A stretch of 64,000 bases of DNA from Spirochaetia bacterium. GTDB lineage: Bacteria; Spirochaetota; Spirochaetia; SZUA-6; Fen-1364. This document shows positions 2,819-30,424 of this stretch, one piece after another. The stretch spans positions 7,332 to 71,331 of the forward strand of contig JBEKUJ010000017.1 in NCBI GenBank assembly GCA_049515135.1, given 5' to 3'. The notes under the pieces are model-generated. The model did no database searches. It saw only the letters and a program-made list of their open reading frames with translations, and was not told where the DNA came from. The stretch's first letter is position 1. Each line of letters opens with the position of its first letter. A program made the translations under genes and the position numbers.

Positions 2819-2844
2819 GGTCGGCGTCTCACTTTCTTGCGCTC

Positions 2845-6269: not shown

Positions 6270-6280
6270 CTTCGCGCCTC

Positions 6281-6718
6281 CTACCGCACTTCGAAGCTGA
6301 CACGGGTTGTGGCCGCAGCCCTGCTTTCCGCTTCCCATCGACTCCTGATCCGTCTTTCCTCGGCTTCCAGCAGCGGGGCGAGCTGCGCGGCCATGGCGTG
6401 CCCGCCGCCGATTACGGCATCCAGCAGGGCGCTGCACAGCGCCCGGTCTTCTCCCGAACCCAGGACGCAGCCGTACCCCGGCAGGCCGCCCACGTCCACT
6501 TCACATTCCGTAACGTACGCCTCTCCGAGCAGGAACTGGATGTTCTCCAGAGGGTCGACCTGCCTCACCATGACCATGCCCGGAGAGGGGGACTTCAGGA
6601 CTCTGACGGGTAGCCGGTTCACGATGACCTGGGCAATCTCACGCACCGCGTCAAGCTCACCCTCGGCGGCAATCTCTGAATGGTCCATCATGACGGGACG
6701 ATAAAACCAGAGTTGCAT
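6281..6718 (-). CDS. phnG: PhnG, C-P lyase complex subunit
   Basis: About 140 aa, alignable to E. coli PhnG (…RMGGTGERFFAGDATLTRAAV… vs …QVDPLENIQFLLGEAYVTECEV…). Real start may be the ATG at 6691 or 6688 (MMDHSE) rather than 6718. No clear RBS for any candidate. Confidence 0.7.
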   Translation of the reverse strand: MQLWFYRPVMMDHSEIAAEGELDAVREIAQVIVNRLPVRVLKSPSPGMVMVRQVDPLENIQFLLGEAYVTECEVDVGGLPGYGCVLGSGEDRALCSALLDAVIGGGHAMAAQLAPLLEAEERRIRSRWEAESRAAATTRVSFEVR

Positions 6719-6750
6719 TAGTTTTCGATTAGGGAGGTGTTAAAAATCTG

Positions 6751-8728: not shown

Positions 8729-8789
8729 AACCCGCAGAAAGCATTCCGACAGAGTGTTAGGCAACGGTGAAGCCAGCGTGAATTTTCTG

Positions 8790-10076: not shown

Positions 10077-10945
10077 ACAGGGACCGCGAACCAGCTGTCC
10101 ATCGCGTCGATGAGAGCCGGGGTCGTGGGCAGGGCAAAGCGGGCGCCGTTGGCAGTCACCTCCACCGTGTTTCCCATGCGAGCGACCGATTGGATCCGGG
10201 CCCGGGCCATGAACAGGCTGTCCACGCCATACGAGAGCTCTGACTGCGGGGGATCACGCAGAGAGATAAGCTCGTAGGGAGTCACGATCATCATGTGGCA
10301 GCGCGCAATCTTTCCGTGCCGTCCGTAGGACTGGACAGAAAATCTAAAATCCCGCGGGGCCGACTCATCCAGAGTGGAATAGGGATAGTTGAGAAGAAAG
10401 TTCCATTTGAACGGAATTGTCGTCACCCTGGCTCGGCGGCAGGGAACCTCGAACCCGGGACCGGCAAGCGTCCTTCTCAAGCCTGCCAGGACCGGCTCCA
10501 GCACGCGCCGACAGATGGTGTTGTAACGGATGGTCAGGCGCTGGTCATGCGAAAGGAAACTGAGCCTCCCATAGAGAAGAATGTGCACGTCTTCGATTGC
10601 AGAGAGCTTGTCGAGAGCGATGCATACCTTCACGCCCGGCTGGGGCTTTTCCGCCCACAGACCGACTGCGATGTCTCCGACTGCCAGGACTTGCAGAGGG
10701 GTTATCACCCTGCGGTTCCCCCGGGCCGTGGCGCGCACGCACGAAGGAATGATCAGCGTATGCCCAAGTTCCTTCACGCCGCACGTGTCCTGAAGAGATT
10801 CAAAAGCGCCCGCCGGAAGGTCCCCGGGTTTCTTCGGAACAGACGGGTGACCGGCGTAGCGGTCGCGAAAATAGAATCCGCCGCCCAGCTCCGTATATGG
10901 CGCTTCCCAGGTTTCCGCCGGGTCCTGCGCCCACGTCATTTTCAT
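10073..10945 (-). CDS. Hypothetical protein (about 290 aa), unrecognised family, embedded in the phn operon
   Basis: Start ATG 10945 (MKMTWAQDP) forms an ATGA overlap with the gluconolactonase-like gene stop. Its own stop overlaps the FAD oxidoreductase start. No motif recognised. Confidence 0.45.
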   Translation of the reverse strand: MKMTWAQDPAETWEAPYTELGGGFYFRDRYAGHPSVPKKPGDLPAGAFESLQDTCGVKELGHTLIIPSCVRATARGNRRVITPLQVLAVGDIAVGLWAEKPQPGVKVCIALDKLSAIEDVHILLYGRLSFLSHDQRLTIRYNTICRRVLEPVLAGLRRTLAGPGFEVPCRRARVTTIPFKWNFLLNYPYSTLDESAPRDFRFSVQSYGRHGKIARCHMMIVTPYELISLRDPPQSELSYGVDSLFMARARIQSVARMGNTVEVTANGARFALPTTPALIDAMDSWFAVPV

Positions 10946-11856
10946 GGCTCCTGCGCGCCGCGCGCGTTCACGTACATGGCGTACAGCGACGAATGGCCGG
11001 CGATGAAGAGCCTGTTCCGCCGCGGTCCGCCGAACGTCAGGTTCGCCACGGTCTCTGGAACCAGGATCTTTCCGAGGAGATCTCCCTGTGACGAATAGCA
11101 CAGGACGCCGTCCGCGCAGCTTATCCAGGCATTCCCGCCGGTATCTGTTCGAAAGCCGTCCGGCACACCAGGGCTGATGTCCGCAAAGACTTCTCCCCCG
11201 GAAAGTCTGCCGTTGGACACCTGGAACCTGCGCACATGATGGGGACCGCCCTCCGTGTGAGTGGCGCCCGAGTCGGCGACATACAGCAGGCGTTGATCCG
11301 GCGAAAATGCCAGCCCATTTGGCTTGTCGAAATCGTCCGCTGCAATCGTCACGCTGCCTGTTGCAGGATCCGCACGGTAGACGTTGTTGCCGTCCTGTTC
11401 CGAGTCGGCCTTCCCTCCCTCATAGTCGGAAAGGATGCCGTACGGCGGATCGGTGAACCACACCGCGCCGTCCCGGGATACCACCACATCGTTGGGTGAG
11501 TTGAGCCGCCTGCCCTCGTAGCGGTCAGCGATTGTGGTGATGCTCCCGTCCAGCTCCGTGCGGGTCACGCTCCGGCTGCCATGCTCGCAGCTCACAAGCC
11601 GCCCTGTCGTGTCGCGTGTGTTTCCATTTGCAAAGCGCGAGGGGAAGCGGAACACCGTGACGGGCCCTCCGTCCACCCATCGGAGAATTCTGTCGTTCGG
11701 AATATCGCTGAACAACAGGTACTGGCCGTCAGCGAACCAGACCGGCCCTTCAGCCCAGAGGGCACCGGTGAACAGCCTTTCCATTCTTGCGTTCGGCAGG
11801 GTGAGGTCGCGAAAACGCCTGTCGTAGATTTCCCAGTCAACCATGTTTCCCCTCAT
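10942..11856 (-). CDS. SMP-30/gluconolactonase/LRE-family protein (lactonase-like beta-propeller)
   Basis: 304 aa; motifs EGPVWFADGQYLLFSDIPNDRILRW, NSPNDVVVSRDGAVWFTDPPYG, PNGLAFSPDQRLLYVADS. First gene of the long minus-strand operon. Confidence 0.75.
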   Translation of the reverse strand: MRGNMVDWEIYDRRFRDLTLPNARMERLFTGALWAEGPVWFADGQYLLFSDIPNDRILRWVDGGPVTVFRFPSRFANGNTRDTTGRLVSCEHGSRSVTRTELDGSITTIADRYEGRRLNSPNDVVVSRDGAVWFTDPPYGILSDYEGGKADSEQDGNNVYRADPATGSVTIAADDFDKPNGLAFSPDQRLLYVADSGATHTEGGPHHVRRFQVSNGRLSGGEVFADISPGVPDGFRTDTGGNAWISCADGVLCYSSQGDLLGKILVPETVANLTFGGPRRNRLFIAGHSSLYAMYVNARGAQEP

Positions 11857-19740: not shown

Positions 19741-20142
19741 ATGGCTTCGAATACGACACTCGAGTTTTCAATAGATGGGCAGCTAGTCTTTTCCAGCTCG
19801 GGAAAGTGGCTCCACCCCCTCTTCGAGCTGGAGGAGTTCCTGAAGGCGCGCGCGGGAGTGGACCCGGCCAGGGCGCATGTCCGAGACAAGATCATCGGGC
19901 GCGGCTCCGCCTTCCTCATCGTCAGAATGGGAATCTGCAAGGTTCATGCAGGAGTTCTCAGCAGGCTGGGAAAGGACGTGCTGGACCGGGCGGGGGCCGC
20001 CTGCACTTGGGACCAGCTTGTCGACACTATCCAGTGCCGCACTGAGGGGCTTCTTCGCGACACAACAGATCCCCAGGAGGCATACCGCGTGCTGGCGGAC
20101 CTTGCCGGCGCGGGTTCTCCTCTAAAGAGGCAGAGCCTGTAG
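19741..20142 (+). CDS. DUF1893-like (TM1506-type) small protein
   Basis: ATG 19741 (MASNTTLEFSIDGQLVFSSSGKWLHPLFELEEFL...IIGRGSAFLIV). Recognition is from memory of the DUF1893 pattern. The preceding AT-rich stretch (tatatcgtataaaa) is promoter-like. Confidence 0.45.
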   Translation: MASNTTLEFSIDGQLVFSSSGKWLHPLFELEEFLKARAGVDPARAHVRDKIIGRGSAFLIVRMGICKVHAGVLSRLGKDVLDRAGAACTWDQLVDTIQCRTEGLLRDTTDPQEAYRVLADLAGAGSPLKRQSL

Positions 20143-20150
20143 CCTCCCCT

Positions 20151-20585
20151 TCAGCGCTGCCGGGAGCTCCCGGCTTTTGAGGACGCGGGGCGCGGGCGGC
20201 CGGCTTTGGCGGGAGCTGACGGAGCAGCTGCGCGCGGCCTGGCCAGGGCTGTGGGATGGCGCGGCTGATAGAGTCCAAGCTCACCGCCTCCCGGCAGCGC
20301 AATGGCGCAGACCCTGCCCCAGCTCTCTTCGCTCACGGCCCGGGAGAACTTCACACCCTTCGCTCGGAGCTCCCCGATCGTTTTCTCGATGTCCTGGCAC
20401 ATCAGGTAGAGATCCAGCCGTGGTGCGCCGTCTGTGGGATGAACTGCTATTTCAGCAGGCGGAAGTGCAAAGATCGTCCATCCGCCGCCGGCGTCAACCT
20501 TGTTGGTGTCCAGGATTTTTTCCAAGAGCTCCCGTGCCTCGGCCGGCGCCCGGGAAAACACGATGGAATGTGCGCCGAAGATCAT
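20151..20585 (-). CDS. VOC (glyoxalase/bleomycin-resistance-like) family protein with low-complexity C-terminal tail
   Basis: About 110-aa VOC-like core (GGWTIFALPPAEIAVHP...GGGELGLYQP), then an Ala/Pro/Arg-rich tail. Confidence 0.5.
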   Translation of the reverse strand: MIFGAHSIVFSRAPAEARELLEKILDTNKVDAGGGWTIFALPPAEIAVHPTDGAPRLDLYLMCQDIEKTIGELRAKGVKFSRAVSEESWGRVCAIALPGGGELGLYQPRHPTALARPRAAAPSAPAKAGRPRPASSKAGSSRQR

Positions 20586-20634
20586 GGATGCGCCTCCTCA
20601 CATGTAAGAATACCACTTCGTGAACTGAAAACTT

Positions 20635-21882
20635 CTACTGTCCCGCAGCAAACAGTATCCGGGAGAGTTTTGCAACCGTGAAATGATTGCGCAGGTAGTG
20701 GGCACTCTGGAAGGCCTGGTCGCGATCAGAGTCGGAGAGCCCCAGCTCCTGCGTGCTGGCAGGCCCCCCTGTCTGATGGATGAGCCGGCCAATCTCCTCA
20801 GGACCGGGCACCATTCCAGCTATCTCCTGGATTTCGGTCCAGGAATCCAGGGTCTTCTGCTTCAATTGCTCCCACGCTTCGCTGCTCATCCCGATGAATC
20901 GCGTCTGCGTTTCGGCCACATCGTCCGCCGCCTGCCCGTACGCCGCCCTGATGCGCTGCAGCTCCTCCTCCCGGGAAGGCTGCGGGGATCTCTGGAGCAG
21001 CTCGGCCGCTTTGCTGCGGGTAAGTTGCCTGATGGCGGCATAGAGCTCCGCCGCAAGCATGGTTGCCACCCCCACCTTGGCCCCATGCAGGATTGCCGGC
21101 CTTCCCTCCCTGAGGAGCTTCATCTCCCAGAAGTGCGAGTAATGGTGCTCGGCCCCGGATGCAGGCAGGGAGCTTCCGAAATCCAGCATGCAGAACCCCG
21201 ATTCCAGCAAAGCCTCGAAGAGACGGCGGACTCCCTGCTTTGTGGCCGCTGCTATTTCCGCGGCCGCCTCCTGGCAGGTCTGCGCCGCGCTGAGACACCG
21301 GTCGGCAACTTCCTGGTCGAAGCGGAAGCCCCAGAGCAAAGAGCCCAGCCTCCAGTCCGCCACGGAGGTATGCTTGCCCATCATGTCGCCGAAACCAGCC
21401 GCAATCATGCTCCGGGGCGCTGAGCATAGCACTGCCAGGTCTGCGAAAATGGCCAGCGGCGGATGCGCCAGGGCAGTTGTCTTGATTCCGCGAACGACGA
21501 GGGGCGAGCCGAGGGAGGTGAACCCGTCCACGGAAGGGGCCGTGGGCATGACAATGAAAGGGACGCCGACCCTGTGGCTGACGAACCTTGTGATGTCGGT
21601 AATAGTTCCTGAGCCGACGGCCACAAGGCACTGGTCCCGCCTGTCGAAGAACAGCAGGCACTGCAGAATGGAATGCGCATCAGCCACGACCTCGGGGCCG
21701 GCAAGGATCACCGACCGGACCTCACGGCCGCTTCGCCGAAGGGATTCTTCCACAGTCCGGCCCAGGACCCCGTGGGTGGTCTGGTCCGCGATGACGAGCA
21801 GCCGTTTGAATCCGGCCTGCCCGCAGAACGAGACCAGGTCCGAGACGGCCCCCGCGCCAATGGCGACGCGCGGCCTGGTCAT
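20635..21882 (-). CDS. Iron-containing alcohol-dehydrogenase superfamily enzyme, sn-glycerol-1-phosphate dehydrogenase (G1PDH/AraM)-like
   Basis: Start ATG 21882 (MTRPRVAIGAGAV) overlaps the upstream Zn-ADH stop (ATGA). Motifs GSGTITDITRFVS and PFIVMPTAPSVDGFTS resemble the G1PDH/glycerol-DH nucleotide and metal site. The ORF-track N-terminal 46 aa are rejected. Confidence 0.6.
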   Translation of the reverse strand: MTRPRVAIGAGAVSDLVSFCGQAGFKRLLVIADQTTHGVLGRTVEESLRRSGREVRSVILAGPEVVADAHSILQCLLFFDRRDQCLVAVGSGTITDITRFVSHRVGVPFIVMPTAPSVDGFTSLGSPLVVRGIKTTALAHPPLAIFADLAVLCSAPRSMIAAGFGDMMGKHTSVADWRLGSLLWGFRFDQEVADRCLSAAQTCQEAAAEIAAATKQGVRRLFEALLESGFCMLDFGSSLPASGAEHHYSHFWEMKLLREGRPAILHGAKVGVATMLAAELYAAIRQLTRSKAAELLQRSPQPSREEELQRIRAAYGQAADDVAETQTRFIGMSSEAWEQLKQKTLDSWTEIQEIAGMVPGPEEIGRLIHQTGGPASTQELGLSDSDRDQAFQSAHYLRNHFTVAKLSRILFAAGQ

Positions 21883-22910
21883 GGCTCCAGGATGACCTTC
21901 ATGAGATCGGGCTCCTGGCGGTAGAGCCTGTCGAACCATGCAGCCCCCTCCGACAGCGGCGCACGGGCGCTGATGAACGAATCCACGTTCACCCGTTTGC
22001 GCGCAATCAGGTCCAGGCATTCCGGGTATTCCCCCTGTGACGCGCAGGACCCCAGAAGGGTGACCTGGCGCGTGACCACTGACTGGAGCGCAAGCTCGAT
22101 CTTCGGCGAGAGGTTGCCCACCAGGACCACCCTCCCGCCCATGCGGACCGCTTCCACGGCCCTGCCAACCGCAGCAGTGATCCCCACTGCCTCGAAGGCC
22201 ATGTCGGCGCCGCGGCCTTGCGTCAGGTCCAGGACCTGCTTGATCGAGTCAGGCGATTTAGAATCCAGTCCGACGTCCGCGCCGAGCTCGCGCGCGCGGC
22301 GCAGCTTGCCTTCATCGACGTCGAGGGCAATGATGGTGGAGCAACCGGAGGCTCGGAGGACCTGGACCAGGAGGAGCCCGATCATGCCGGTCCCCACCAC
22401 GACCGCGGATTCACCCACCTCGGGCCGGGCAAGCCGAACGGCGTGGAAGGCCACCGACAGAGGCTCCGTCATTGCCGCCTGGTGGAATGCGACCTCGGGC
22501 GGGATGCGATACAGGATGTGCTGCGGAACCGCAACCAGCTGGGCAAAAGCCCCGTTGCGCCGGTAGTCGGCGCAGGAGACGCCAAGGACGCGGCGGCGCT
22601 CGCAGAGGTTGATTTCCCCCCGGCGGCAGCGCCAGCACTCGCCGCAGGAGATGGTTGAGTCGAACGTGACCCTGTCCCCGACGCGCCACCCCTGCACCCG
22701 GGCGCCGATCTGCGTGATCACCCCGGCAGCCTCATGGCCCATGATGACCGGGGGCAGCCGCCTGCCGGTGGAGCCGTCCATGCCGTGCACATCGCTCCCG
22801 CAGATGCCGCATGCCTTGACCTGCACCATGACCTCATTGTCTTCGGTCTGCGGGTCCGGTGAATCTCCGTAGACAAGCTTGCCGTATTCCTTGAGCGTCA
22901 GCGCCTTCAT
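21879..22910 (-). CDS. Zn-dependent medium-chain alcohol/polyol dehydrogenase (sorbitol/threonine-DH-like)
   Basis: GHEAAGVI, structural-zinc CGECWRCRRGEINLC, and Rossmann VVVGTGMIGLL. ATG 22910 or 22913 with GGGGAGG upstream. Confidence 0.75.
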   Translation of the reverse strand: MKALTLKEYGKLVYGDSPDPQTEDNEVMVQVKACGICGSDVHGMDGSTGRRLPPVIMGHEAAGVITQIGARVQGWRVGDRVTFDSTISCGECWRCRRGEINLCERRRVLGVSCADYRRNGAFAQLVAVPQHILYRIPPEVAFHQAAMTEPLSVAFHAVRLARPEVGESAVVVGTGMIGLLLVQVLRASGCSTIIALDVDEGKLRRARELGADVGLDSKSPDSIKQVLDLTQGRGADMAFEAVGITAAVGRAVEAVRMGGRVVLVGNLSPKIELALQSVVTRQVTLLGSCASQGEYPECLDLIARKRVNVDSFISARAPLSEGAAWFDRLYRQEPDLMKVILEP

Positions 22911-22965
22911 CATGGCCTCCCCTGACAATAGTACACTATAATGCGGCGGAGGAAATCGAGAGGCA

Positions 22966-24075
22966 ATGGACTCAGTCGACGTGCTCGTCATCGGCGCAGG
23001 AGTGATAGGGCTTGCCATCGCCGAGCGCCTGGTCGGCCCGAAGCGGGAGCTGGTGGTATGCGAACGCCATGACGGGTTCGGGAGGGAAACCTCTTCCCGA
23101 AACAGCGAAGTGATCCATTGCGGCATGTATTACGCGGAGGACCTCCTGAAAACAACTCTCTGCGTCCGCGGCAATCCGCTTCTCTATGAGCTGTGCGCCC
23201 GCGCCGGGATCCCGCACCGCAAGACAGGGAAGATCGTCGTTGCAACGGATGAATCGGAGTCGGAGAAGCTCCACCGGATCCTGGATCAGGGAAGGAGAAA
23301 CGGCGTCACCGGCCTCAGGCTGCTCTTGGCCGGGGAAATCCGCGACATGGAGCCGGACGTGAGCGGTTGTCTGGGACTGCACAGCCCGGAAAGCGGGATC
23401 GTTGACAGCCATCGACTGATGGAGCACCTGGAGCGCTCGGCCCGCTCCCGGGGAGCCATCATGGCGTACGGCTGCGAGGTGACGGGCATTCACAAGGAGC
23501 GGTCCGGGTATCGAGTGGAGATCACGCAGGGAGGCGGGGAGACCGTTGTGATTGCCGCCGGGTGCGTGGTCAACTCTGCGGGCCTCGGGGCGGACGGGAT
23601 TGCCGCAATGGCGGGAATCGACATCGATGAATCGGGCTACCGCATCCATCCGTGCAAGGGCGAATACTTCCGGATAGCCAGCAGACACCGGGGCAGGATC
23701 CGCCGGCTTGTGTACCCCACGCCGTCTCCTGTCCACCTGGGCGCGCACGTGGTCCTGGGACTCGATGACGGCCTGAAGATCGGTCCTGATTCCAGCTACG
23801 TGGACCGGATCGACTATGCCGTCGATGCCGGCCACCAGCGCGAGTTCTTCGAAAAAGCAGTCCGCTTCCTGCCCTTCCTTTCCTATGACGACCTTTCACC
23901 GGACATGTCGGGAATTCGGCCCAAGCTGTACCGGCGGGGCGAGCCTTTTCGGGACTTCGTGATCCGCGAAGAGGGTGATCGGGGACTTGCGGGCCTGGTC
24001 AACCTCATCGGCATGGAGTCCCCTGGGCTGACGTCGTGTCTCACCATCGCAGAAAAGGTGGAAAGCCTTCTCTAG
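22966..24075 (+). CDS. FAD-dependent oxidoreductase, L-2-hydroxyglutarate oxidase (LhgO/YgaF)-like
   Basis: VDVLVIGAGVIGLAIA and overall LhgO-like architecture. Divergent from the Zn-ADH gene with a 52-bp spacer that contains TATAAT. Confidence 0.7.
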   Translation: MDSVDVLVIGAGVIGLAIAERLVGPKRELVVCERHDGFGRETSSRNSEVIHCGMYYAEDLLKTTLCVRGNPLLYELCARAGIPHRKTGKIVVATDESESEKLHRILDQGRRNGVTGLRLLLAGEIRDMEPDVSGCLGLHSPESGIVDSHRLMEHLERSARSRGAIMAYGCEVTGIHKERSGYRVEITQGGGETVVIAAGCVVNSAGLGADGIAAMAGIDIDESGYRIHPCKGEYFRIASRHRGRIRRLVYPTPSPVHLGAHVVLGLDDGLKIGPDSSYVDRIDYAVDAGHQREFFEKAVRFLPFLSYDDLSPDMSGIRPKLYRRGEPFRDFVIREEGDRGLAGLVNLIGMESPGLTSCLTIAEKVESLL

Positions 24076-24077
24076 GG

Positions 24078-24533
24078 TTATTTCTTCAGGAATCTCTTCT
24101 CGTACTCGGAGATGCGCTCAACTTTTGCCGTCGAGCCTCCACCCTGGAACTCTGACTCGAGCCAGGCGTCGACCACCGTCTTCGCCAGCTCAGGGCCAAT
24201 GACCCGGGCCCCCATGGTGAGGACCTGGGCGTTGTTGCTCTTGCGGGCGCGCTCCGCCGAATAGGTGTCGTGGCAGGTTGCGGCCCTGATGCCGGGGACC
24301 TTGTTGGCCGTGATGGCCATCCCCAGGCCCGTCCCGCACATGAGGATCCCGCGTTCGTGCTTCCCCTCCGCAATGGCAACCGCCACTGCAAACGCGATGT
24401 CCGGGTACAGGGAAGGGCGTGTGTCGAACACGCCGTAGTCCGTCACCTCGATATGCTTTTCCTCGACGAGGTGCTTCTTGATGATTTCCTTCAGCTCGTA
24501 GGCGGCGTCGTCGGCGCCCAGGGCAATGGTCAT
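24078..24533 (-). CDS. rpiB: Ribose-5-phosphate isomerase B / sugar-phosphate isomerase (RpiB/LacA/LacB family)
   Basis: MTIALGADDAAYELK, GILMCGTGLGMAITANK, NNAQVLTMGARVIG. ATGA overlap with the upstream reductase stop. Confidence 0.8.
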   Translation of the reverse strand: MTIALGADDAAYELKEIIKKHLVEEKHIEVTDYGVFDTRPSLYPDIAFAVAVAIAEGKHERGILMCGTGLGMAITANKVPGIRAATCHDTYSAERARKSNNAQVLTMGARVIGPELAKTVVDAWLESEFQGGGSTAKVERISEYEKRFLKK

Positions 24534-25402
24534 GCGCGTCCTCCTGGCTCTCTCCACAGCTCGATGATTGCGGGCTGGGAGTACGGTCCCTTCCCTGCCG
24601 CCTGGCCTGCCACGAAGATCTCATGCGCCGCGGCGGTCATGGGGATGGGGACATGGCTCTCCGCCGCAAGGGACCTGGCGTAGCTGAGGTCCTTCTCCAT
24701 CATGTTGATGGTCCCCCCGGGAGTGTAGTCCCGGGCCATCATTGCGGATGCGCTGACGTCCAGCACCTTGGAGCCGGCCCATCCCTCGCGGATGGCGTTG
24801 TACAGGGACCCGGTATCAACGCCGTTTTTTCCCGCCAGGGCGAATCCCTCTGCAATCACGGCAAAGGCCGAAGCGACGATCATATTGTTGACCAGCTTTG
24901 CGACGTTGCCTGCGCCCGCATCGCCCACCCTGACCACGGTCTTCCCCATCGCCGAGAGGAGCGGCAGGCACCTTTCAAAGGCGGCTGTGCTGGCGCCTAC
25001 CATGATGGCAAGCGTGGCCGCCAGCGCGCCCCCTTCCCCTCCGCTGACCGGCGCATCGGCAAACTCGATGCCCGACCGGGCAAACCTGGCTGCGATGCGG
25101 CGCGACACAGCGGGAAGGCTTGTGCTGAGGTCTATCACGAGAGACCCCGGCCGGAGCTCATTGACAAGCCCCGTGCCCCCAATGGCCACCTCTTCCACCG
25201 TCTTCGCGTCCGGCAGGGACAGGCATACCACTGTGCAGCGCCTGGCAAGCTCGGAGAGCGTGCCGGCGCGTGTCACCCCCGCCAGCCCCTGGAACCTTGC
25301 CTCGTTCACGTCATAGCCGGTGACGGGGTATTTCTTCACCAGGTTCCCCGCCATGGCGCGGCCCATGACCCCAAGCCCGACGAAACCAGCTTCTTCTGTC
25401 AT
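24530..25402 (-). CDS. NAD-binding 3-hydroxyisobutyrate-dehydrogenase family reductase (tartronate-semialdehyde / 2-hydroxy-3-oxopropionate reductase-like)
   Basis: GFVGLGVMGRAMAGNL, DAPVSGG, AKLVNNMI. Confidence 0.8.
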   Translation of the reverse strand: MTEEAGFVGLGVMGRAMAGNLVKKYPVTGYDVNEARFQGLAGVTRAGTLSELARRCTVVCLSLPDAKTVEEVAIGGTGLVNELRPGSLVIDLSTSLPAVSRRIAARFARSGIEFADAPVSGGEGGALAATLAIMVGASTAAFERCLPLLSAMGKTVVRVGDAGAGNVAKLVNNMIVASAFAVIAEGFALAGKNGVDTGSLYNAIREGWAGSKVLDVSASAMMARDYTPGGTINMMEKDLSYARSLAAESHVPIPMTAAAHEIFVAGQAAGKGPYSQPAIIELWREPGGRA

Positions 25403-25489
25403 GTCCCTTCAATCATACTCACGGAAGCGCCGCCGCGCCACCCGGGCGGCCACTTGCCGGGCGGCGTCCGTTCCGTGCACCATTCCCGC

Positions 25490-26533
25490 ATGCAGCTCAC
25501 GAAGCGCGTCCTTGCCCGGCTGAAATCTCCCTATCCCCTCGGCCTTCTCGCGCTGGACGGCAAGCAGTGCGTGGTCGGGTCCACGGAGGATCACGGTCCG
25601 GTAGTGATGGCGGCCCCGCCTTACGATGAGGCCATTGAGATTGTCCCAGGGCCCGGCGGCTGTATGGCCCTGGTCCCGGATGCGGAGCGGCCCGGCGAGC
25701 TGTATGCCATCATGGGGTGCTTCCCCGGGTACAAATTCCAGACCGGCGCCATCTACCGGATCGGTCGGGAAGCGGGCCAATGGACCCGCACAAAGCTTGC
25801 GGACCTGCCTTTTGCGCACAGGATCGACTTCGTCACCCGCGGCGGTAACCGCTACCTGATGGCGGCGACCCTGGCGGCCGACAAGAGCGACCCCTCGGAC
25901 TGGTCCAGGCCGGGGACCCTCTATGCGTGCCGGGTCCCGCGCCAACCCGAGGAGCAATGGTCGCTTGTCCCGGTTCTGGAGAACATCCACCGCAACCACG
26001 GGCTCCTTGTCCAGCGCTTCGAAGGACGGAGGTCGATCCTTGTTTCCGGGACCGAGGGGCTGTTTGCCTCAAATCTTGAACAGCCCGGCGGCAGCTGGGC
26101 TTTCAAAACGGTCCTCAGGGATGAAGTCAGCGAGGTTGTGGTCCTGGATGTCGACGGTGACGGAGAGGACGAGCTCATCACCATCGAACCGTTCCATGGA
26201 AACTTTCTCCGGGTCTACAAGCGGTTTCCAGGCCGGTATGAGAAGGCATGGGAGGGCGAAATTGCCTTCGGTCACGGCCTGCTGGCGGGAAGGTTGGGCG
26301 GCGCGCCGAGCATCCTTGTCAGCAACAGGGCTGAATCGCGCGACCTGCTCCTGTTCCAGTTCCCTCAGGGGACCCGGCCGTCCGGTCGCGGTCTGTCGGA
26401 GCCGACTCGGACAGTGGTTGACCCGGGGGCAGGCGCGGCGAACATGCTGATCCTGAGCCATAACGGCGAAGACCGGATATTCTCTACGAACCAGTCCGCG
26501 GGCGAGATTGCTGTGTACTCGGCAGCGCCTTGA
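25490..26533 (+). CDS. Hypothetical protein (347 aa), possibly beta-propeller (VVLDVDGDGEDELITIEPFHG)
   Basis: The coherent protein-like sequence begins at ATG 25490 (MQLTKRVLARLKSPYPLGLLALDG). The 290-aa upstream part of the ORF-track ORF is antisense to the reductase gene and is rejected. Convergent 50-nt overlap with the SDR gene end. Confidence 0.45.
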   Translation: MQLTKRVLARLKSPYPLGLLALDGKQCVVGSTEDHGPVVMAAPPYDEAIEIVPGPGGCMALVPDAERPGELYAIMGCFPGYKFQTGAIYRIGREAGQWTRTKLADLPFAHRIDFVTRGGNRYLMAATLAADKSDPSDWSRPGTLYACRVPRQPEEQWSLVPVLENIHRNHGLLVQRFEGRRSILVSGTEGLFASNLEQPGGSWAFKTVLRDEVSEVVVLDVDGDGEDELITIEPFHGNFLRVYKRFPGRYEKAWEGEIAFGHGLLAGRLGGAPSILVSNRAESRDLLLFQFPQGTRPSGRGLSEPTRTVVDPGAGAANMLILSHNGEDRIFSTNQSAGEIAVYSAAP

Positions 26534-27299
26534 GCGCCCCGACGGAAATGCCGCCGTCCACCAGGAGGATCTGCCCTGTCACGTAGCGGCTCTCTTCCGA
26601 GGCAAGGAAGACAACGGCCCCGTCCAGGTCATTCGGCGCGCCGGGACGTCCCAGGGGGATCCGCTCGGACAGGTACTCCACCCAGCCCGCGTCCTGGTAC
26701 ATCACTGCGTTCTGGGCCGTCTTGAACCAGCCCGGCGCCAGGCAGTTCACCGTTATTCCGTACTCCCCCCAGTCATGGGCAAGGCTCATGGTCAGCTGCT
26801 TGATCCCCCCGCGGCTTGCGCCGTACGGAGCCAGGCCGGAATAGCCCGCAACGGAGGTCTCTGAGCCGATATTGATGATGCGGCCGTAGCGCGCTTCGAT
26901 CATGGGCCGTGCGATGGCCTGGGCCACGAAGAACGATCCGCGCAGGTTCGTGTCCAGAATGAGGTTCCAGTCATCCCATGTCACCTCGAGCGCCCGCTTT
27001 CGCACGTTGCACCCGGCGTTGTTGACCAGGATGTCGATCCGGCCGAACGCCTTCTTGGCCCGCTCCGCCACGCGCTGGATGCTGTTGTAGTCCCGCACGT
27101 CGAGCTCGAGCGGGACTGCCGTGCGGCCAAGCTCTTCGACTTCTTTCCGAAAAGCCTCCAGCGCCTCGGCATGCCTGCTTGTGATGATCAGGTCCGCCCC
27201 GGCGCGCGCCAGCGCCCGGCCGAAGTACTGGCCAAGGCCCCTGCTTGCCCCCGTGACCAGCGCGACTCTTCCCGAAAGGTCGAACTGTGTGGCTTTCAT
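26484..27299 (-). CDS. SDR-family oxidoreductase (gluconate-5-dehydrogenase-like)
   Basis: Start ATG 27299 (MKATQFDLSGRVALVTGASRGLG). NNAG and catalytic YGASRGGIK present. C-terminal about 17-aa tail. Confidence 0.8.
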   Translation of the reverse strand: MKATQFDLSGRVALVTGASRGLGQYFGRALARAGADLIITSRHAEALEAFRKEVEELGRTAVPLELDVRDYNSIQRVAERAKKAFGRIDILVNNAGCNVRKRALEVTWDDWNLILDTNLRGSFFVAQAIARPMIEARYGRIINIGSETSVAGYSGLAPYGASRGGIKQLTMSLAHDWGEYGITVNCLAPGWFKTAQNAVMYQDAGWVEYLSERIPLGRPGAPNDLDGAVVFLASEESRYVTGQILLVDGGISVGALKALPSTQQSRPRTGS

Positions 27300-27353
27300 G
27301 GGGTTTGAGTATGCTCGTTTGCGGAAACAAATCAACAGAGACGCGCGCCCGGA

Positions 27354-28277
27354 TCAGATCGCCACGGCCAGCCCGAGCGATGCGAACACGGCAAGGGGAT
27401 AGAAGCAGGCCTTGTTGAAAAAGGCCAGGGCCGACCTCCTGCTCAACTCCCGCTGCCACGCAAGGGATGGAAAGACCAGGAGATATGCGGCCGCGGCCAG
27501 CGAGCCCAGCTCATACAGGGGCCAATGGGCAAGGGGCGACGCAAGGGGGAAGAGGGCAGCGCAGAGCACAACCATCATCATGGCGACAAAAGAGATCCTG
27601 GCCGCGCGCGGAAGCCCGAAACGGATGGCAATGGTCTTGATTCCAAGGGCGGCGTCTTCGTCGAAATCTGTCCAGTCGTTGGCTATGTTTCGGCAGCCCG
27701 TCTCCCACGCCAGGGACCACATGAAGTACAGAGACACCAGGCCGGCCGACGGGAAGCGCGTCACAGCGTAGAGCCCGGCAAGACCCCCGACTGCGACATT
27801 GCAGCCGGAGAGAACGGTCTTCCACGGTGTCACCCGCAGCAGGCTGCAGTAGGCTGCCTCCAGACCCGCCGCAGCCAGGAGAAGCCACGCGCAGGCAGGC
27901 CTGACGAGCCAGGCCGTGGCAAAGGACAGAACGCCCCAGAAAAGCACCCACGCCAGCCCTGTCTTGAAAGAAAGCTTGCCCTGCGCAACGGGGTGGCGAA
28001 GCCCGAGGGAATCAAGGTCGAACGGAGCAGGCCTGCCCGCGACGGCCTTCATTTTCTCCGCGTCCACGCGGTGGTCCATCATGTCGTTGAGCCCGAATAT
28101 CGCGGTGAGCCCGGCGAATGCCGACACGAGCCCCAGGACTACCGTGCGAACGGGTGGCATCCCCCCACGGGCCAGGATGGCTCCTACTGCGAGGTAGGGC
28201 ACGTCGAGAATCGAGTGGCTCATCCGCGAGAGGCCATAAAACCGCCCTACCAGGCTCCGAAGTGCGGGCTGCCGCAT
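27354..28277 (-). CDS. UbiA-family integral-membrane prenyltransferase
   Basis: Asp-rich motif LNDMMDHRVD followed by RHPVAQGKLS (the RP.P.G-like second site). Multiple hydrophobic helices. 307 aa. Confidence 0.7.
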   Translation of the reverse strand: MRQPALRSLVGRFYGLSRMSHSILDVPYLAVGAILARGGMPPVRTVVLGLVSAFAGLTAIFGLNDMMDHRVDAEKMKAVAGRPAPFDLDSLGLRHPVAQGKLSFKTGLAWVLFWGVLSFATAWLVRPACAWLLLAAAGLEAAYCSLLRVTPWKTVLSGCNVAVGGLAGLYAVTRFPSAGLVSLYFMWSLAWETGCRNIANDWTDFDEDAALGIKTIAIRFGLPRAARISFVAMMMVVLCAALFPLASPLAHWPLYELGSLAAAAYLLVFPSLAWQRELSRRSALAFFNKACFYPLAVFASLGLAVAI

Positions 28278-28328
28278 TGAAAATACCTACGCGAAAATCC
28301 GCCCCATGGATGGCTACCCGCGAGGGGC

Positions 28329-28359
28329 TTGACGGACCAATTTTATTTAGATAATCTAA
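28329..28359 (+). promoter_or_regulatory. marR promoter (TTGACG -35) with perfect palindrome TTAGAT-a-ATCTAA overlapping the -10; candidate autoregulatory MarR operator
   Basis: TTGACG 28329-28334; palindrome 28347-28359; -10 candidates TAATCT/GATAAT inside the palindrome; RBS aaaggtga before ATG 28380. Confidence 0.35.
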
Positions 28360-28379
28360 TAGTTAGAAAGGTGAATAAA

Positions 28380-28835
28380 ATGGCACGTGAAGAAGAAGAA
28401 TGCGCCCGGCAGCTGCTGGAGGTCGTTCCTTCCGTGGCCCGGTTCATCCGTACGCAGATGCGCAGCCATCGCGCGATGGGCTTGAGCGTTCCGCAGTTTC
28501 GCACCCTCGCGTTCATCGAGCGCGTCGGCGGCGCCTCCCTTGGCAGTGTGGCGGAGCACCTGGGGCTGACGCCTCCTTCGGCATGCAAGATTGTCGACGG
28601 GCTGGAAGCGCGGGAGCTGATCAGCCGCGCGCAGTCCTCTGACGACCGGCGCAAGGTGAGCCTCGGGATCACCCAGGGAGGGAAGAGCGCCCTTTCCGAT
28701 GCACGCAGGGAGACGCTGAAGAGCCTGGCTGACGTCCTTTCGGCAATCGACCGGGATGATCTGGCAAGAGTCATTCAATCCATGGAAGCCCTCAGGGGCG
28801 CGTTTGCAGGGGAGACCGTCCATGCCCATGCTTGA
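28380..28835 (+). CDS. MarR-family transcriptional regulator
   Basis: wHTH region LSVPQFRTLAFIERVGGASLGSVAEHLGLTPPSACKIVDGLEARELISR. Start ATG 28380. Confidence 0.8.
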   Translation: MAREEEECARQLLEVVPSVARFIRTQMRSHRAMGLSVPQFRTLAFIERVGGASLGSVAEHLGLTPPSACKIVDGLEARELISRAQSSDDRRKVSLGITQGGKSALSDARRETLKSLADVLSAIDRDDLARVIQSMEALRGAFAGETVHAHA

Positions 28836-29619
28836 GCTGCAAGGCCTCACGCGGCGCTTCGGCCCGCTGATTGCCGTCAATGACCTTCATCTTTCCATCG
28901 ACAAGGCGGAGATGTTCGCCCTTCTGGGTCCCAATGGAGCGGGCAAGAGCACAACCATCAAGATGCTCACCACGCTGCTCGCCCCCAGCGCGGGGACGGC
29001 TATTGTGGACGGCCTCGACATAGTCCGCCAGCCGGGAGCAGTGCGGCGGATCATCGGCTACGTGCCCCAGATGCTTTCGGCGGACGGAACGCTGACCGGC
29101 ATGGAGAACCTTCTGGTGTTCGCGAAGCTCTACGACCTGCCGCGCAGGGAGCGGCGGGAACGGGTTTGGGCAGCCCTTGATTTCATGGGGCTCTCCGATG
29201 CGTCGGACAGGCCGGTGCGCCAGTATTCCGGCGGCATGATCAGGCGCCTGGAAATCGCGCAGTCCATGCTGCACAACCCGCGCGTCCTGTTCATGGACGA
29301 GCCGACGGTGGGGCTGGACCCTGCTGCGCGGCGCGCGGTCTGGGACCACATCGAAGAGCTCAGAAGGCGCACAGGCGCCACTATCGTCCTTACGACGCAC
29401 CAGATGGAGGAGGCGGATTCACTGTGCGACAGGATCGCGATCATGCACAGGGGGGTCCGTGTGGCCCAGGGGACCCCGGCAGAGCTGAAGTCTTCAATCG
29501 GGGGGAACGGGACCACCCTTGACGATGTTTTCATCCACTACACGGGCAGCAATCTGGATTCAGGAGGTACATACCGTGAAACCAGGCGGACACGCAGGCG
29601 GGTTCGCCGTCTCGGCTGA
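28822..29619 (+). CDS. ABC transporter ATP-binding protein (ABC-2/DrrA-like)
   Basis: Walker A GPNGAGKSTT, signature YSGGMIRRLEIA, Walker B LFMDEPTVGLD. Start overlaps the marR end. Confidence 0.8.
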   Translation: MPMLELQGLTRRFGPLIAVNDLHLSIDKAEMFALLGPNGAGKSTTIKMLTTLLAPSAGTAIVDGLDIVRQPGAVRRIIGYVPQMLSADGTLTGMENLLVFAKLYDLPRRERRERVWAALDFMGLSDASDRPVRQYSGGMIRRLEIAQSMLHNPRVLFMDEPTVGLDPAARRAVWDHIEELRRRTGATIVLTTHQMEEADSLCDRIAIMHRGVRVAQGTPAELKSSIGGNGTTLDDVFIHYTGSNLDSGGTYRETRRTRRRVRRLG

Positions 29620-30424
29620 GCTCGACCTTGGCAGGACGGACCTTTTTTTCTGGCTCGCCCGCTACATCGGGAGGACGCTCACCATTGCGGGGATGGAGGC
29701 GCGCAAGCTCCTCCATGACCCGACCGAGCTTCTCACCCGCGCAGTTCAGCCTGCTCTGTGGCTCCTGGTCTTCGGCCAGGTCTTCACGCGCATTCGCGCC
29801 ATCCCGACGGGAAACATGCGCTACATCGACTTCATGGCGCCCGGGATACTTTCGCAGAGCGTGCTGTTCATAGCGATTTTCTACGGCATCTCCGTTATCT
29901 GGGAGCGGGACCTCGGGATCCTCCACAAGTTCCTCGTGAGCCCAACCCCAAGGTCCGCCCTCGTGCTGGGCAAGGCCATTTCCGCGGGGCTGCGCGGCCT
30001 TGCGCAGGCCCTCATCGTCTATCTCCTTGCAGTGCTCCTGGGCGTCGGGATGGATTGGAACCCTCTTTCCCTCCTGGGCGTGCTGCTGGTGGTCATGCTG
30101 GGCGCAGCCTTTTTCTCGACATTTTCGCTTATCATTGCCTGCCTGGTGAAAACCCGGGAACGCTTCATGGGGATCGGACAGATCCTCACGATGCCGCTGT
30201 TCTTTGCCAGCAACGCAATCTACCCGATATCGATCATGCCGCGATGGCTGCAGATCATCTCCCACGCGAACCCGCTCACCTACCAGGTCGATGCGCTGCG
30301 CTTCCTCATGCTGTCGAGCGGCAGCAGCTTGAACGGGCTGGGAATGGATTTCGGGGTGCTGGCGGCGGCCACGGTGCTCGTCGTGGCTGTCGGATCCCGC
30401 CTGTACCCGACACTCGCGACATGA
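29576..30424 (+). CDS. ABC-2-type transporter permease
   Basis: Six hydrophobic segments. GTG 29576 preceded by CAGGAGG; overlaps the ATPase gene end. Confidence 0.65.
   Translation: MKPGGHAGGFAVSAELDLGRTDLFFWLARYIGRTLTIAGMEARKLLHDPTELLTRAVQPALWLLVFGQVFTRIRAIPTGNMRYIDFMAPGILSQSVLFIAIFYGISVIWERDLGILHKFLVSPTPRSALVLGKAISAGLRGLAQALIVYLLAVLLGVGMDWNPLSLLGVLLVVMLGAAFFSTFSLIIACLVKTRERFMGIGQILTMPLFFASNAIYPISIMPRWLQIISHANPLTYQVDALRFLMLSSGSSLNGLGMDFGVLAAATVLVVAVGSRLYPTLAT

Follow-up and report, generated by a model that had tools for sequence, protein, structure and literature searches.

A predicted carbohydrate/polyol redox-isomerase cassette adjoining a UbiA-family prenyltransferase gene in a Spirochaetota contig

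Gene layout of the locus

The window is the whole 64,000-nucleotide stretch of DNA analyzed. The source contig belongs to a soil Spirochaetota metagenome. Every gene named in the initial annotation was found in its place, including the MarR, ABC ATPase, and ABC-2 permease genes next door (Table 1). Seven of the genes (SDR, beta-propeller, HIBADH and RpiB, FAD oxidase, and Zn-ADH and AraM-type G1PDH homologue) are referred to as the cassette.

Table 1. Positions of the cassette genes and flanking features in the window.
Feature	Position	Strand	Basis or remark
orf144, conserved hypothetical	20151..20585	-	right-hand flank of cassette, stable
AraM-type sn-glycerol-1-phosphate dehydrogenase homologue, Fe-ADH_2 fold, 415 aa	20635..21882	-	PF13685
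Zn-dependent polyol/secondary-alcohol dehydrogenase (Zn-ADH), MDR family	21879..22913	-	ADH_N + ADH_zinc_N domains
FAD oxidoreductase, DAO family, LhgO/L2HGDH-like, distantly GlpO-like	22966..24075	+	PF01266
RpiB-family sugar-phosphate isomerase	24078..24533	-	PF02502
HIBADH-family (beta-hydroxyacid) dehydrogenase	24530..25402	-	NAD_binding_2 + NAD_binding_11 domains
Uncharacterized 7-bladed FG-GAP/VCBS-type beta-propeller, 347 aa	25490..26533	+	structure model
SDR, gluconate-5-DH/KduD-like, left edge of cassette	26484..27299	-	adh_short_C2
UbiA-superfamily prenyltransferase, putative orphan subfamily, outside cassette	27354..28277	-	PF01040
13-bp palindrome TTAGATTATCTAA, candidate MarR operator	28347..28359	.	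read from sequence
MarR-family regulator, divergent from UbiA	28380..28835	+	PF12802 + PF01047
ABC ATPase	28828..29619	+	PF00005
ABC-2 permease	29693..30424	+	PF01061 + PF12698

The stop codon of the Zn-ADH gene overlaps the start of the AraM-like gene as ATGA, the coupling first described for this locus. The HIBADH gene is ATGA-coupled to RpiB, and the 3' end of the propeller gene overlaps the SDR gene by 50 bp. The initial description of a same-strand cluster holds for the minus-strand genes it listed, but two plus-strand genes split them into three units (UbiA-SDR, HIBADH-RpiB, and ZnADH-AraM-like-orf144). The two convergent and two divergent junctions give at least three minus-strand units in the interval. 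Because the plus-strand genes break the cluster, the predicted layout cannot yield a transcript common to UbiA and the AraM-like dehydrogenase. UbiA and the SDR gene lie on the same strand 54 bp apart; no recognizable terminator was seen in the sequence of this gap, and read-through from UbiA into the SDR gene may occur. Gene callers place the UbiA start at 28223; position 28277 is favored because homologues share the N-terminal 'FxGLSRMxHS'.

Protein family assignments

The AraM-like dehydrogenase matches PF13685 (117 bits) and scores 182 bits on the NCBIfam G1PDH model NF002022 versus 48 on GldA and 38 on AroB. Against solved structures, archaeal G1PDH gives about 92 bits, GldA at most 49, and DHQS at most 33. 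The best match among PDB entries, 9h4x, is named 'G1PDH' and is 42% identical over 281 aa (E 2e-69); its length (414 aa) and sequence suggest that it is probably Bacillus subtilis AraM itself. The enzyme falls in the AraM/G1PDH clade, not with the glycerol dehydrogenases, and because of this membership G1P production is the most likely chemistry predicted for it. A halophile protein annotated 'G1PDH' turned out to be a glycolaldehyde reductase (PMC9700705).

Apart from RpiB, which passes the generic RpiB model, none of the cassette enzymes reaches a substrate-specific equivalog cut-off. RpiB matches PF02502 (183 bits) and TIGR01120 (152.9 bits, cut-off 138.65), but on the DerI equivalog its 185 bits fall short of the cut-off of 240. 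Among NCBIfam models the Zn-ADH comes nearest to the IolM-like and threonine DH ones, with every score under its cut-off, and in the PDB it is related to sorbitol, threonine, and butanediol DHs. The FAD oxidase (PF01266, 209 bits) scores 230 bits on LhgO (cut-off 299) and 146 bits on the type 2 G3P oxidase model; its PDB matches are 3dme (function unknown, 1e-78), Drosophila L2HGDH (1e-40), and Mycoplasma GlpO (2e-19). The nearest model to the HIBADH enzyme is tartronate semialdehyde reductase (258 bits, cut-off 397), with PDB 1vpd at 1e-55. The SDR matches adh_short_C2 (208 bits) and reaches no NCBIfam equivalog cut-off, and orf144 has no Pfam or NCBIfam match. The propeller protein is modeled with seven blades (pLDDT 96). 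Weak PF22301 matches occur in 11 of the 66 members of its family, and a conserved His cluster could bind metal.

UbiA (PF01040, 105 bits) has both Asp-rich motifs, NDxxDxxxD and the second, and on this basis is predicted to be catalytically intact. It reaches no NCBIfam equivalog; the top model is TIGR01475 (78.7 bits, cut-off 180.8), and the DGGGPS equivalogs give 32-35 bits against cut-offs of 296-353. The top solved structure by sequence for its family profile is a DGGGPS (34.8 bits). The structure model is a nine-helix UbiA fold (pLDDT 89) that best matches ApUbiA (TM 0.77-0.81). A word-indexed search found 62 relatives, and JGI labels relatives '4-hydroxybenzoate polyprenyltransferase'. 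One relative at 34% identity is translationally coupled to a UbiE-like methyltransferase near ETF/FixC genes, and relatives at 52% identity are paired with a class-B-like radical SAM gene. The failed models indicate that UbiA is not a DGGGPS, and it does not group firmly with the quinone or heme enzymes either; it is placed in an orphan subfamily. The initial annotation had held that a glycerol or polyol dehydrogenase together with a quinone- or heme-type UbiA would mark an ordinary carbohydrate cluster beside a housekeeping gene; the dehydrogenase groups instead with G1PDH/AraM, and UbiA is not firmly of either type.

Synteny and interpretation of the locus

The gene order is more than a chance arrangement: L006/L092, L007, and L027, three further genomes of Spirochaetota, keep it at 63-95% amino acid identity. 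UbiA adjoins the cassette in L007 and L027; in L006/L092 the cassette is preceded by Tex with no adjoining UbiA, and L095 also has a cassette without adjoining UbiA. The converse arrangement is found in L088, where a UbiA 70% identical to that of the window lies in the order HtrA, ABC-2, ABC, MarR / UbiA, orf144, TM1506, MTase, PepS9 (70-90% identity). No cassette lies between UbiA and orf144 in L088, and the spacer sequences align across the junction. In L088, orf144 (83% identity) directly follows UbiA; in the window and in L006, L007, and L027 its direct predecessor is the AraM-like gene. The 335-kb L088 contig also carries, about 75 kb from UbiA, orthologues of five genes of the cassette (DAO 76%, propeller 68%, HIBADH 80%, ZnADH 75%, and SDR 78-94% over frameshifted fragments). 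This distant set is joined to the dihydroxyacetone-kinase genes Dak1 and Dak2 and includes a remoter RpiB homologue (56%), with Amidohydro_2, AP_endonuc_2, PfkB, KDPG aldolase, MR_MLE, and GFO_IDH. The ancestral order would be UbiA followed by orf144, TM1506, and the class I methyltransferase.

MarR also adjoins UbiA in L007, L027, and L088, and the ABC ATPase and ABC-2 permease are 80-93% identical there. The palindrome TTAGATTATCTAA in the MarR/UbiA divergent spacer is identical in L027 and has a degenerate form (TTAGATAAACTAA) in L007 and L088.

A UbiA ORF lies within 7 kb of the AraM-like gene at 3 of 81 loci, all close relatives (hmmsearch, UbiA profile). Among the Spirochaetota loci examined, the more distant ones (L008-L011, L018, and L091) keep the AraM-like and DAO pair, which in L011 adjoins Dak2-Dak1-RpiB and an SDR. 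Neighbors of AraM-like genes were counted by ORF clustering at 75 loci and annotated from one representative per cluster or one locus. They comprise FGGY kinases (33/75), RpiB (21/75), SDR (19/75), class II aldolase-like proteins (16/75), 2-hydroxyacid DH (14/75), and HAD-IIA phosphatase (11/75). Contexts of the dehydrogenase and cassette homologues also include ABC sugar transporters, Dak1/Dak2, AP_endonuc_2, PfkB, and KDPG aldolase; FGGY kinases and class II aldolase-like genes lie near the Chloroflexota homologues.

Synteny decides that UbiA and the cassette are separate. The interval as a whole is best explained as two functionally independent units that are neighbors in this lineage only (probability about 0.8). 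One is a modular, movable carbohydrate/polyol redox-isomerase cassette that runs from the SDR through the AraM-like gene. The other is UbiA, which belongs with the divergent MarR and ABC-2 exporter genes. UbiA would be expressed from the spacer that it has in common with them, and its acceptor is most likely aromatic or quinone-like, not glycerol phosphate.

We infer that the cassette acts on small (C3-C4) polyols, ketoses, and their phosphates, with flux into DHAP or erythrose-4-phosphate. The Zn-ADH and SDR would convert free polyols to ketoses. The AraM-type enzyme would interconvert a polyol-1-phosphate (sn-glycerol-1-phosphate or a close analogue) and a DHAP-type ketose phosphate with NAD(P), and RpiB would interconvert ketose and aldose phosphates. 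The FAD oxidase would take a second hydroxy substrate, the HIBADH enzyme would reduce or oxidize a 3-hydroxy-acid/aldehyde pair, and the propeller is perhaps a keto-sugar dehydratase. Phosphorylation and uptake would be encoded elsewhere in the genome. This pathway is a sketch because only the generic RpiB cut-off is reached and genes for a kinase, an aldolase, or a transporter are absent from the window cassette. Rare-sugar or polyol catabolism, as first proposed, is borne out in kind by the carbohydrate contexts of the homologues; its specific tetritol form is not established, given the RpiB score on DerI and a cassette without a kinase.

A glycerol/dihydroxyacetone/glycerol-phosphate node is a tentative and rather unlikely alternative. 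The AraM-like enzyme (G1P/DHAP) and the FAD oxidase (G3P-type substrate to DHAP) would catabolize or interconvert both glycerol-phosphate enantiomers, with the Zn-ADH as a glycerol/polyol dehydrogenase and Dak kinases in sister cassettes. The pair retained in distant Spirochaetota, the nearby Dak1/Dak2 in L011 and L095, and the detectable similarity of DAO to type 2 G3P oxidase are consistent with this node. However, DAO is nearer to L-2-hydroxyglutarate dehydrogenases than to GlpO, neither a glycerol kinase nor a facilitator is adjacent, and RpiB, HIBADH, and the propeller are not accounted for.

Still less probable is a dedicated tetritol (erythritol, D-/L-threitol) pathway with the AraM-like enzyme as a tetritol-phosphate dehydrogenase, an EltD-like Zn-ADH, a DthD-like SDR, and RpiB as DerI (D-erythrulose-4-P to erythrose-4-P). 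The D-threitol route of Mycobacterium smegmatis is laid out as DthD, DerK, and DerI, presumably the layout of Dak1/Dak2 beside RpiB and SDR in the related cassettes L011 and L095. The FGGY kinases and class II aldolase-like genes of the Chloroflexota loci belong to what we take to be the protein families of LerK and LerI. The RpiB score on DerI also points this way, but the cut-off is missed while the generic model is passed, and neither a kinase nor a LerI-type gene is part of the window cassette. EltD, LerK, LerI, and DerI are described as enzymes of the tetritol route (PMC10733421). The published tetritol routes leave HIBADH, the FAD oxidase, and the propeller without a function, and the SDR and Zn-ADH cannot be assigned to DthD or EltD.

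In the initial proposal, UbiA would prenylate G1P or a different polyol phosphate supplied by the AraM-like enzyme, and the MarR-controlled ABC-2 system would export the amphipathic product, an archaeal-type ether lipid or a lipid-linked carrier. This reading draws on the G1PDH/AraM clade, the intact Asp motifs, the DGGGPS hit of the UbiA profile, and the adjacency in L007 and L027, but is very improbable: adjacency is limited to three close relatives, UbiA (L088) and cassette (L006/L092, L095) each occur without the other beside them, two opposite-strand genes intervene, DGGGPS models are missed by about 260-320 bits, the annotated genes of the 64-kb window include no GGGPS/PcrB or CarS (CDP-archaeol type), and known pathways form the first ether bond to G1P with the TIM-barrel enzyme GGGPS/PcrB, not a UbiA enzyme (PMC4244643).

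Comparison with known systems

The locus resembles the archaeal ether-lipid pathway (EgsA G1PDH, GGGPS, UbiA-family DGGGPS, and CarS) and its bacterial FCB-group or Bacillus PcrB versions in having a G1PDH-clade dehydrogenase and a UbiA-superfamily enzyme less than 6 kb apart. It differs from them in a window without annotated GGGPS/PcrB or CarS, in a UbiA that fails the DGGGPS models, and in two genes that are not co-transcribed and are syntenic in three close relatives only.

The tetritol systems of M. smegmatis and Brucella (EltD, DthD, LerK, DerK, LerI, and DerI/EryI) share Zn-ADH-type and SDR-type polyol dehydrogenases and an RpiB-family isomerase with the cassette, and sister cassettes add Dak-type kinases. 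Unlike those systems, the window cassette has an RpiB under the DerI cut-off, lacks a kinase and a LerI-type isomerase, and contains HIBADH, FAD oxidase, propeller, and AraM-like genes without counterpart there. The propeller resembles that domain of aldos-2-ulose dehydratase (AUDH, PDB 4a7k) in its weak PF22301 matches and conserved His cluster, but is just 15% identical and lacks the cupin and lectin domains.

UbiA shares the nine-helix fold and both Asp-rich motifs with the aromatic prenyltransferases UbiA, MqnP, and ApUbiA, and the relative at 34% identity has the coupled UbiE-like methyltransferase noted above. Unlike these enzymes, UbiA has about 15 residues inserted behind the first Asp motif, reaches no equivalog cut-off, and is paired here with MarR/ABC-2 and in 52%-identical relatives with the radical SAM gene.

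B. subtilis AraM is a Ni-dependent G1PDH whose gene lies in the araABDLMNPQ-abfA L-arabinose operon. The dehydrogenase here, unlike AraM, is translationally coupled to a Zn-polyol dehydrogenase, adjoins an LhgO-like FAD oxidase, and lies at a locus without arabinose genes; unlike in Bacillus, no PcrB partner was seen within the window. It is like AraM in clade (42% identity to the 414-aa 9h4x over 281 aa), in its length of about 415 aa, and in its C-terminal helical extension. As with AraM, genes of this family occur in sugar operons, where the FGGY kinase, class II aldolase/epimerase-fold, and HAD-IIA phosphatase genes are analogues of AraB, AraD, and AraL.

Gene content and transcription units

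Every gene named in the initial annotation is present, as judged by ORF listing and by Pfam and NCBIfam matches. A 74-kb JGI metagenome contig, Ga0427938_0000562, matches the window, and the closest genomes are uncultured soil Spirochaetota MAGs with dehydrogenase identities of 66–74%. The window gene order was found in three other genomes at protein identities of 63–95%, which shows that the arrangement did not arise by chance. Base composition revealed no GC shift marking a recent foreign origin across the cassette, the seven genes from the SDR to the AraM-like dehydrogenase.

Positions and strands of features in the window and in related loci
Feature	Locus	Position	Strand	Basis or context
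C-P lyase phosphonate operon	window	~1–11100	-	
orf144, hypothetical gene	window	20151–20585	-	
AraM/G1PDH-like Fe-ADH_2 protein	window	20635–21882	-	ORF, Pfam, NCBIfam
Zn-ADH	window	21879–22913	-	ATGA overlap with dehydrogenase start
DAO-family FAD oxidoreductase	window	22966–24075	+	ORF, Pfam, NCBIfam
RpiB	window	24078–24533	-	ORF, Pfam, NCBIfam
HIBADH-type dehydrogenase	window	24530–25402	-	ATGA overlap with RpiB
Propeller, 347 aa	window	25490–26533	+	ORF listing
SDR	window	26484–27299	-	ORF, Pfam, NCBIfam
UbiA	window	27354–28277	-	ORF, Pfam, NCBIfam
Palindrome TTAGATTATCTAA	window	28347–28359		MarR/UbiA spacer
MarR, ABC ATPase, ABC-2 permease	window	28380–30424		next after UbiA
GH65-HAD fusion	window	41264–44251	-	
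Four-gene insertion	L006/L092	~4950–7800		between RpiB and DAO
Propeller family member	L095	10001–11035		
Propeller family member	L096	8001–9035		
UbiA/radical SAM locus	L086	6573–8930		
UbiA/radical SAM locus	L087	6556–8930		
UbiA relative and UbiE-like gene	L097	7001–8829		overlap at the UbiE-like gene start

The genes had been described as a same-strand cluster. The minus-strand assignments hold, but the genes do not form one unbroken unit because the two plus-strand genes, DAO and propeller, split them. The SDR/propeller and RpiB/DAO junctions are convergent, with a 50-bp overlap and 2 bp between the genes, respectively, and the HIBADH/propeller (87 bp) and Zn-ADH/DAO (52 bp) junctions are divergent. 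The interposed genes leave three minus-strand units, UbiA-SDR, HIBADH-RpiB, and Zn-ADH-AraM-like dehydrogenase-orf144, and a single transcript for UbiA and the dehydrogenase is therefore impossible. A consensus scan of 20000–29000 found no promoter-like sites, and the four terminator-like sites in this interval were not above shuffled sequence. The scan is uninformative, so the transcription units are drawn from gene orientation only. No Rfam families or tRNAs were found in a scan of the whole window, which gives no riboswitch clue to the ligand.

Elsewhere in the window, the C-P lyase operon encodes PhnG, PhnH, PhnI, PhnJ, ABC ATPases, and an amidohydrolase, with an aminotransferase and a HAD hydrolase upstream. 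A GH65 glycoside phosphorylase is fused to a beta-phosphoglucomutase-like HAD domain in a 995-aa protein, and genes for a LacI regulator, a GH38 alpha-mannosidase, and an MFS transporter adjoin its gene.

Separation of UbiA from the cassette

The UbiA locus of a relative, L088, lacks the cassette. Its UbiA is 70% identical to the window protein, and its gene order is HtrA, ABC-2, ABC ATPase, and MarR on one side and UbiA, orf144, TM1506, methyltransferase, and peptidase S9 on the other, with 70–90% identity to the window flanks throughout. In L088, all seven cassette genes are missing from the space between UbiA and orf144. The UbiA-side spacer (ATACTC) and the spacer preceding orf144 (GAAG(A)GTGGTA...GAGGAGGCGC) both align between the two loci, and this alignment on either side of the junction identifies the cassette as a clean insertion or deletion. 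About 75 kb away on the same 335-kb contig, locus L095 contains orthologs of DAO, SDR, propeller, HIBADH, and Zn-ADH (68–94% identity). It also contains a more distant RpiB homolog (56%), Amidohydro_2, Dak1, Dak2, a second SDR, and AP_endonuc_2, followed by PfkB, KDPG aldolase, an enolase-superfamily dehydratase, GFO_IDH, and an ABC permease. L095 is evidently a carbohydrate island, and no AraM-like gene was found within 10 kb of it.

In L006/L092, which otherwise keep the window gene order, it is Tex rather than UbiA that stands ahead of the cassette, and an insertion of four genes unrelated to it (HEAT-repeat, OMP beta-barrel, flavodoxin-like reductase, and TetR) separates RpiB from DAO. Thus, the cassette tolerates internal insertions. 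UbiA and the cassette thus occur apart both in L088/L095 and in L006/L092. This separation is the decisive observation at the locus and shows that the cassette is a module that is mobile with respect to UbiA, with the AraM-like gene as one of its optional parts.

Several cassette genes look frameshifted in these long-read MAGs, probably owing to assembly errors. The orf144 product has no Pfam or NCBIfam match; its first 107 residues are 82–93% identical in relatives, its C-terminal tail is Pro/Ala/Ser-rich and not conserved, and its gene always lies directly downstream of UbiA or the AraM-like gene.

Predicted functions of the encoded proteins

The dehydrogenase has the Fe-ADH_2 (DHQS-like) fold (PF13685, 117.1 bits; cut-off 28). 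The initial annotation called it G1PDH-like, and the PDB and NCBIfam scores agree in placing it with the G1PDH clade over GldA and DHQS. Among solved structures its top relative is 9h4x, which has 414 residues and was deposited under the name glycerol-1-phosphate dehydrogenase (237.6 bits, E 2e-69; 42% identical across 281 residues). On this bacterial relative the query scores far above the archaeal G1PDHs (~92 bits), GldA (≤48.6), and DHQS (≤33.4). The NCBIfam ranking is the same (G1PDH 181.9 bits, GldA 47.8, AroB 38.3). The 181.9-bit match covers residues 5–283 only and misses the 413-bit cut-off of the G1PDH equivalog NF002022, a model that we take to be built mainly on archaeal EgsA. D166, H246/H247, and H266, in the GxGD, EHH, and LHG motifs, are invariant across 22 homologs and align with the same motifs in Methanocaldococcus jannaschii G1PDH. 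As family knowledge suggests, the metal ligands are presumably the Asp of GxGD and the His residues of EH and LHG. By sequence, then, the predicted enzyme belongs to the G1PDH/AraM clade and is neither a glycerol dehydrogenase nor a dehydroquinate synthase. The family comprises 2436 proteins at E ≤ 1e-20 among the candidates; 472 matching stretches were found in species-representative genomes, and the homologs come mostly from Chloroflexota and Spirochaetota. Earlier work has already recorded AraM-type G1PDHs in bacteria, Spirochaetes among them (PMC5059525). Despite its annotation as a G1PDH, the halophile protein VNG_6270G turned out to be a glycolaldehyde reductase (PMC9700705); it is much more diverged from true G1PDH than the window dehydrogenase. 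An NAD(P)H-dependent DHAP/G1P activity would be unsafe to assign from annotation alone.

The nearest relative of the FAD oxidase is 3dme (1e-78), a solved protein of no assigned function, followed by L-2-hydroxyglutarate dehydrogenase; Mycoplasma GlpO is only distantly related. The oxidase missed the LhgO equivalog NF008726 (229.8 bits in two stretches; cut-off 299). Tartronate semialdehyde reductases are nearest to the HIBADH enzyme, and sorbitol, threonine, and butanediol dehydrogenases together with an IolM-like model are nearest to the Zn-ADH. The propeller is modeled as a 7-bladed FG-GAP/VCBS protein (pLDDT 96.3). It belongs to a family of ~345-aa 7-bladed proteins (471 representatives) with an invariant His/Arg cluster, and its AUDH-like assignment has a small margin over other propellers. 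In a distant genome the gene lies among HPr, enzyme I, DeoC, OMP-decarboxylase-fold, and AP_endonuc_2 genes. Family members also occur in L095 and L096, and the family recurs in carbohydrate clusters of unrelated genomes. The protein may represent a new enzyme that converts sugars, and the family may be worth following biochemically.

The window UbiA matches PF01040 (104.6 bits; cut-off 34.2) and carries two Asp-rich motifs, NDMMDHRVD (NDxxDxxxD) and DWTDFDED, in which N46, D47, D50, D54, D183, D186, and D190 are invariant. Its predicted structure is a confident nine-helix model (pLDDT 89). The best NCBIfam match is TIGR01475 'UbiA-like' (78.7 bits; cut-off 180.8), and none of the equivalog cut-offs for quinone and heme prenyltransferases (UbiA, MenA, MqnP, CyoE/CtaB) was reached. 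The scores were 41.3 bits for ubiA_proteo (cut-off 275), 35.3 for MqnP (430), and 19.6 for MenA (102); CyoE gave no match to the window protein and weak matches in 13 of 31 relatives. A DGGGPS-like identity, entertained in the initial annotation, was not borne out by NF009522 (34.8 bits; cut-off 353) or NF009521 (32.1 bits; cut-off 296). The UbiA family profile scored 34.8 bits against M. jannaschii DGGGPS (6m31) and 31.6 against AfUbiA, and the top structural match of the model is ApUbiA (TM 0.77–0.81, compared to ~0.70 for DGGGPS). By these scores, the protein fits none of the characterized subfamilies.

A word-indexed search of a large protein collection found only 62 relatives of this UbiA. 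Those in L007, L027, and L088 (at least 70% identity) keep the divergent MarR/ABC-2 unit. In L086 and L087 (52%), a ~475-aa radical SAM gene immediately precedes UbiA; its best match is slr0320-like, and it resembles the 'lipid biosynthesis B12-binding/radical SAM' family more weakly. The arrangement is suggestive of a prenylation-plus-radical-SAM pair; the window contains no homolog of the radical SAM partner. The L097 relative (34%) is coupled translationally with a UbiE-like methyltransferase gene and has ETF/FixC genes alongside, a hint that the role of the wider subfamily may be of the quinone type. A perfect 13-bp palindrome, TTAGATTATCTAA, was read from the sequence of the MarR/UbiA spacer, 20 and 70 nt upstream of the marR and UbiA starts, respectively. 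L027 conserves it, L007 and L088 have degenerate versions, and it is a candidate MarR operator. An inverted-repeat search of four short spacers, with a length threshold that excluded 6+1+6 palindromes such as TTAGATTATCTAA, found no repeats in the MarR/UbiA, DAO/Zn-ADH, and UbiA/SDR spacers. We conclude that UbiA belongs with MarR/ABC-2; its acceptor is most likely aromatic or quinone-like, a weak assignment. This small orphan subfamily, with MarR/ABC-2 here and a class-B-like radical SAM or UbiE-like methyltransferase in relatives, may also merit biochemical study.

Interpretation and comparison with known systems

The best-supported account of the locus has two units. One would be a modular polyol/ketose-phosphate redox-isomerase cassette, and the other an unrelated UbiA-MarR-ABC-2 unit beside which the cassette was inserted. 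Two substrate assignments each fit some of the evidence, and neither accounts for all seven genes. The tetritol route, raised in the initial annotation, draws support from two sister cassettes, L011 and L095, which carry Dak1/Dak2. However, RpiB falls below the cut-off of the DerI equivalog NF051858 for D-erythrulose-4-P isomerase (185.0 bits; cut-off 240) and passes the generic rpiB model TIGR01120 instead (152.9 bits; cut-off 138.65), and no erythrulose kinase of the FGGY or Dak type was found in 20151–30424. The other assignment is the glycerol/dihydroxyacetone/glycerol-phosphate node. Our literature search turned up no relevant description of the 9h4x structure and no relevant link between tetritol metabolism and G1PDH or AraM.

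A further reading takes the conserved pair of AraM-type G1PDH and LhgO/GlpO-like FAD oxidase in these soil Spirochaetota as a non-catabolic glycerol-phosphate stereo-inversion module (G3P to DHAP to G1P), whose G1P would go into a bacterial product, for example heterochiral acyl-glycerolipids or a G1P-containing polymer. The sugar cassette would have been recruited around the pair, and UbiA would be unrelated. A recent study reported that both PlsY and PlsC can use G1P (PMC13400652). We consider this module improbable.

Ether-lipid or lipid-carrier synthesis by the AraM-like enzyme and UbiA, the bolder proposal of the initial annotation, is contradicted by synteny, gene orientation, the failed DGGGPS test, and the absence of GGGPS from the window, and we judge it very unlikely. 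Pfam-annotated gene calls for window positions 1–54251, with the remaining long ORFs scanned separately, contained no GGGPS/PcrB (PF01884-type), CDP-archaeol synthase, or other archaeal-lipid genes. Of 81 dehydrogenase loci searched with the UbiA-subfamily profile (hmmsearch), only 3 have a UbiA ORF within 7 kb of the dehydrogenase, namely those of the window and of its two closest relatives. The predicted UbiA structure, closest to ApUbiA, also argues against the proposal. Comparative synteny identifies the adjacency as an accident of insertion, and a G1PDH-clade gene near UbiA is a tempting false positive for archaeal-type ether lipids in a bacterium. A DprE1/DprE2-like arabinan-type route (UbiA phosphoribosyltransferase, FAD oxidase, and SDR) was rejected because the FAD enzyme is DAO-type and not VAO-type, Rv3806c is a weak match (16.8 bits, TM 0.61), and SDR and UbiA are decoupled in relatives.

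ORFs within 7 kb of 75 homologs of the dehydrogenase were clustered, and annotation covered a single representative of each cluster or a single complete locus. Among the recurrent neighbors, FGGY sugar kinases occur in 33 of the 75 loci, followed by RpiB (21), SDR (19), class II aldolase-like proteins (16), D-2-hydroxyacid dehydrogenases (14), and HAD-IIA phosphatases (11), often with a sugar ABC transporter upstream. The DAO-family oxidase is the neighbor kept in more distant Spirochaetota (L008–L011, L018, and L091), and in L011 the AraM-like/DAO pair adjoins Dak2-Dak1-RpiB and an SDR. AraM-type 'G1PDH' genes in Chloroflexota and Spirochaetota thus typically sit inside sugar/polyol operons. 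We found no explanation in the literature of what they do in this setting, whether G1P supply, DHAP overflow, or another polyol-phosphate substrate. The window locus is a carbohydrate cluster with an AraM-type gene, an already known kind, and the neighbors of the AraM-like homologs follow the same pattern as the Bacillus ara operon, with its AraB, AraD, AraL, and AraM.
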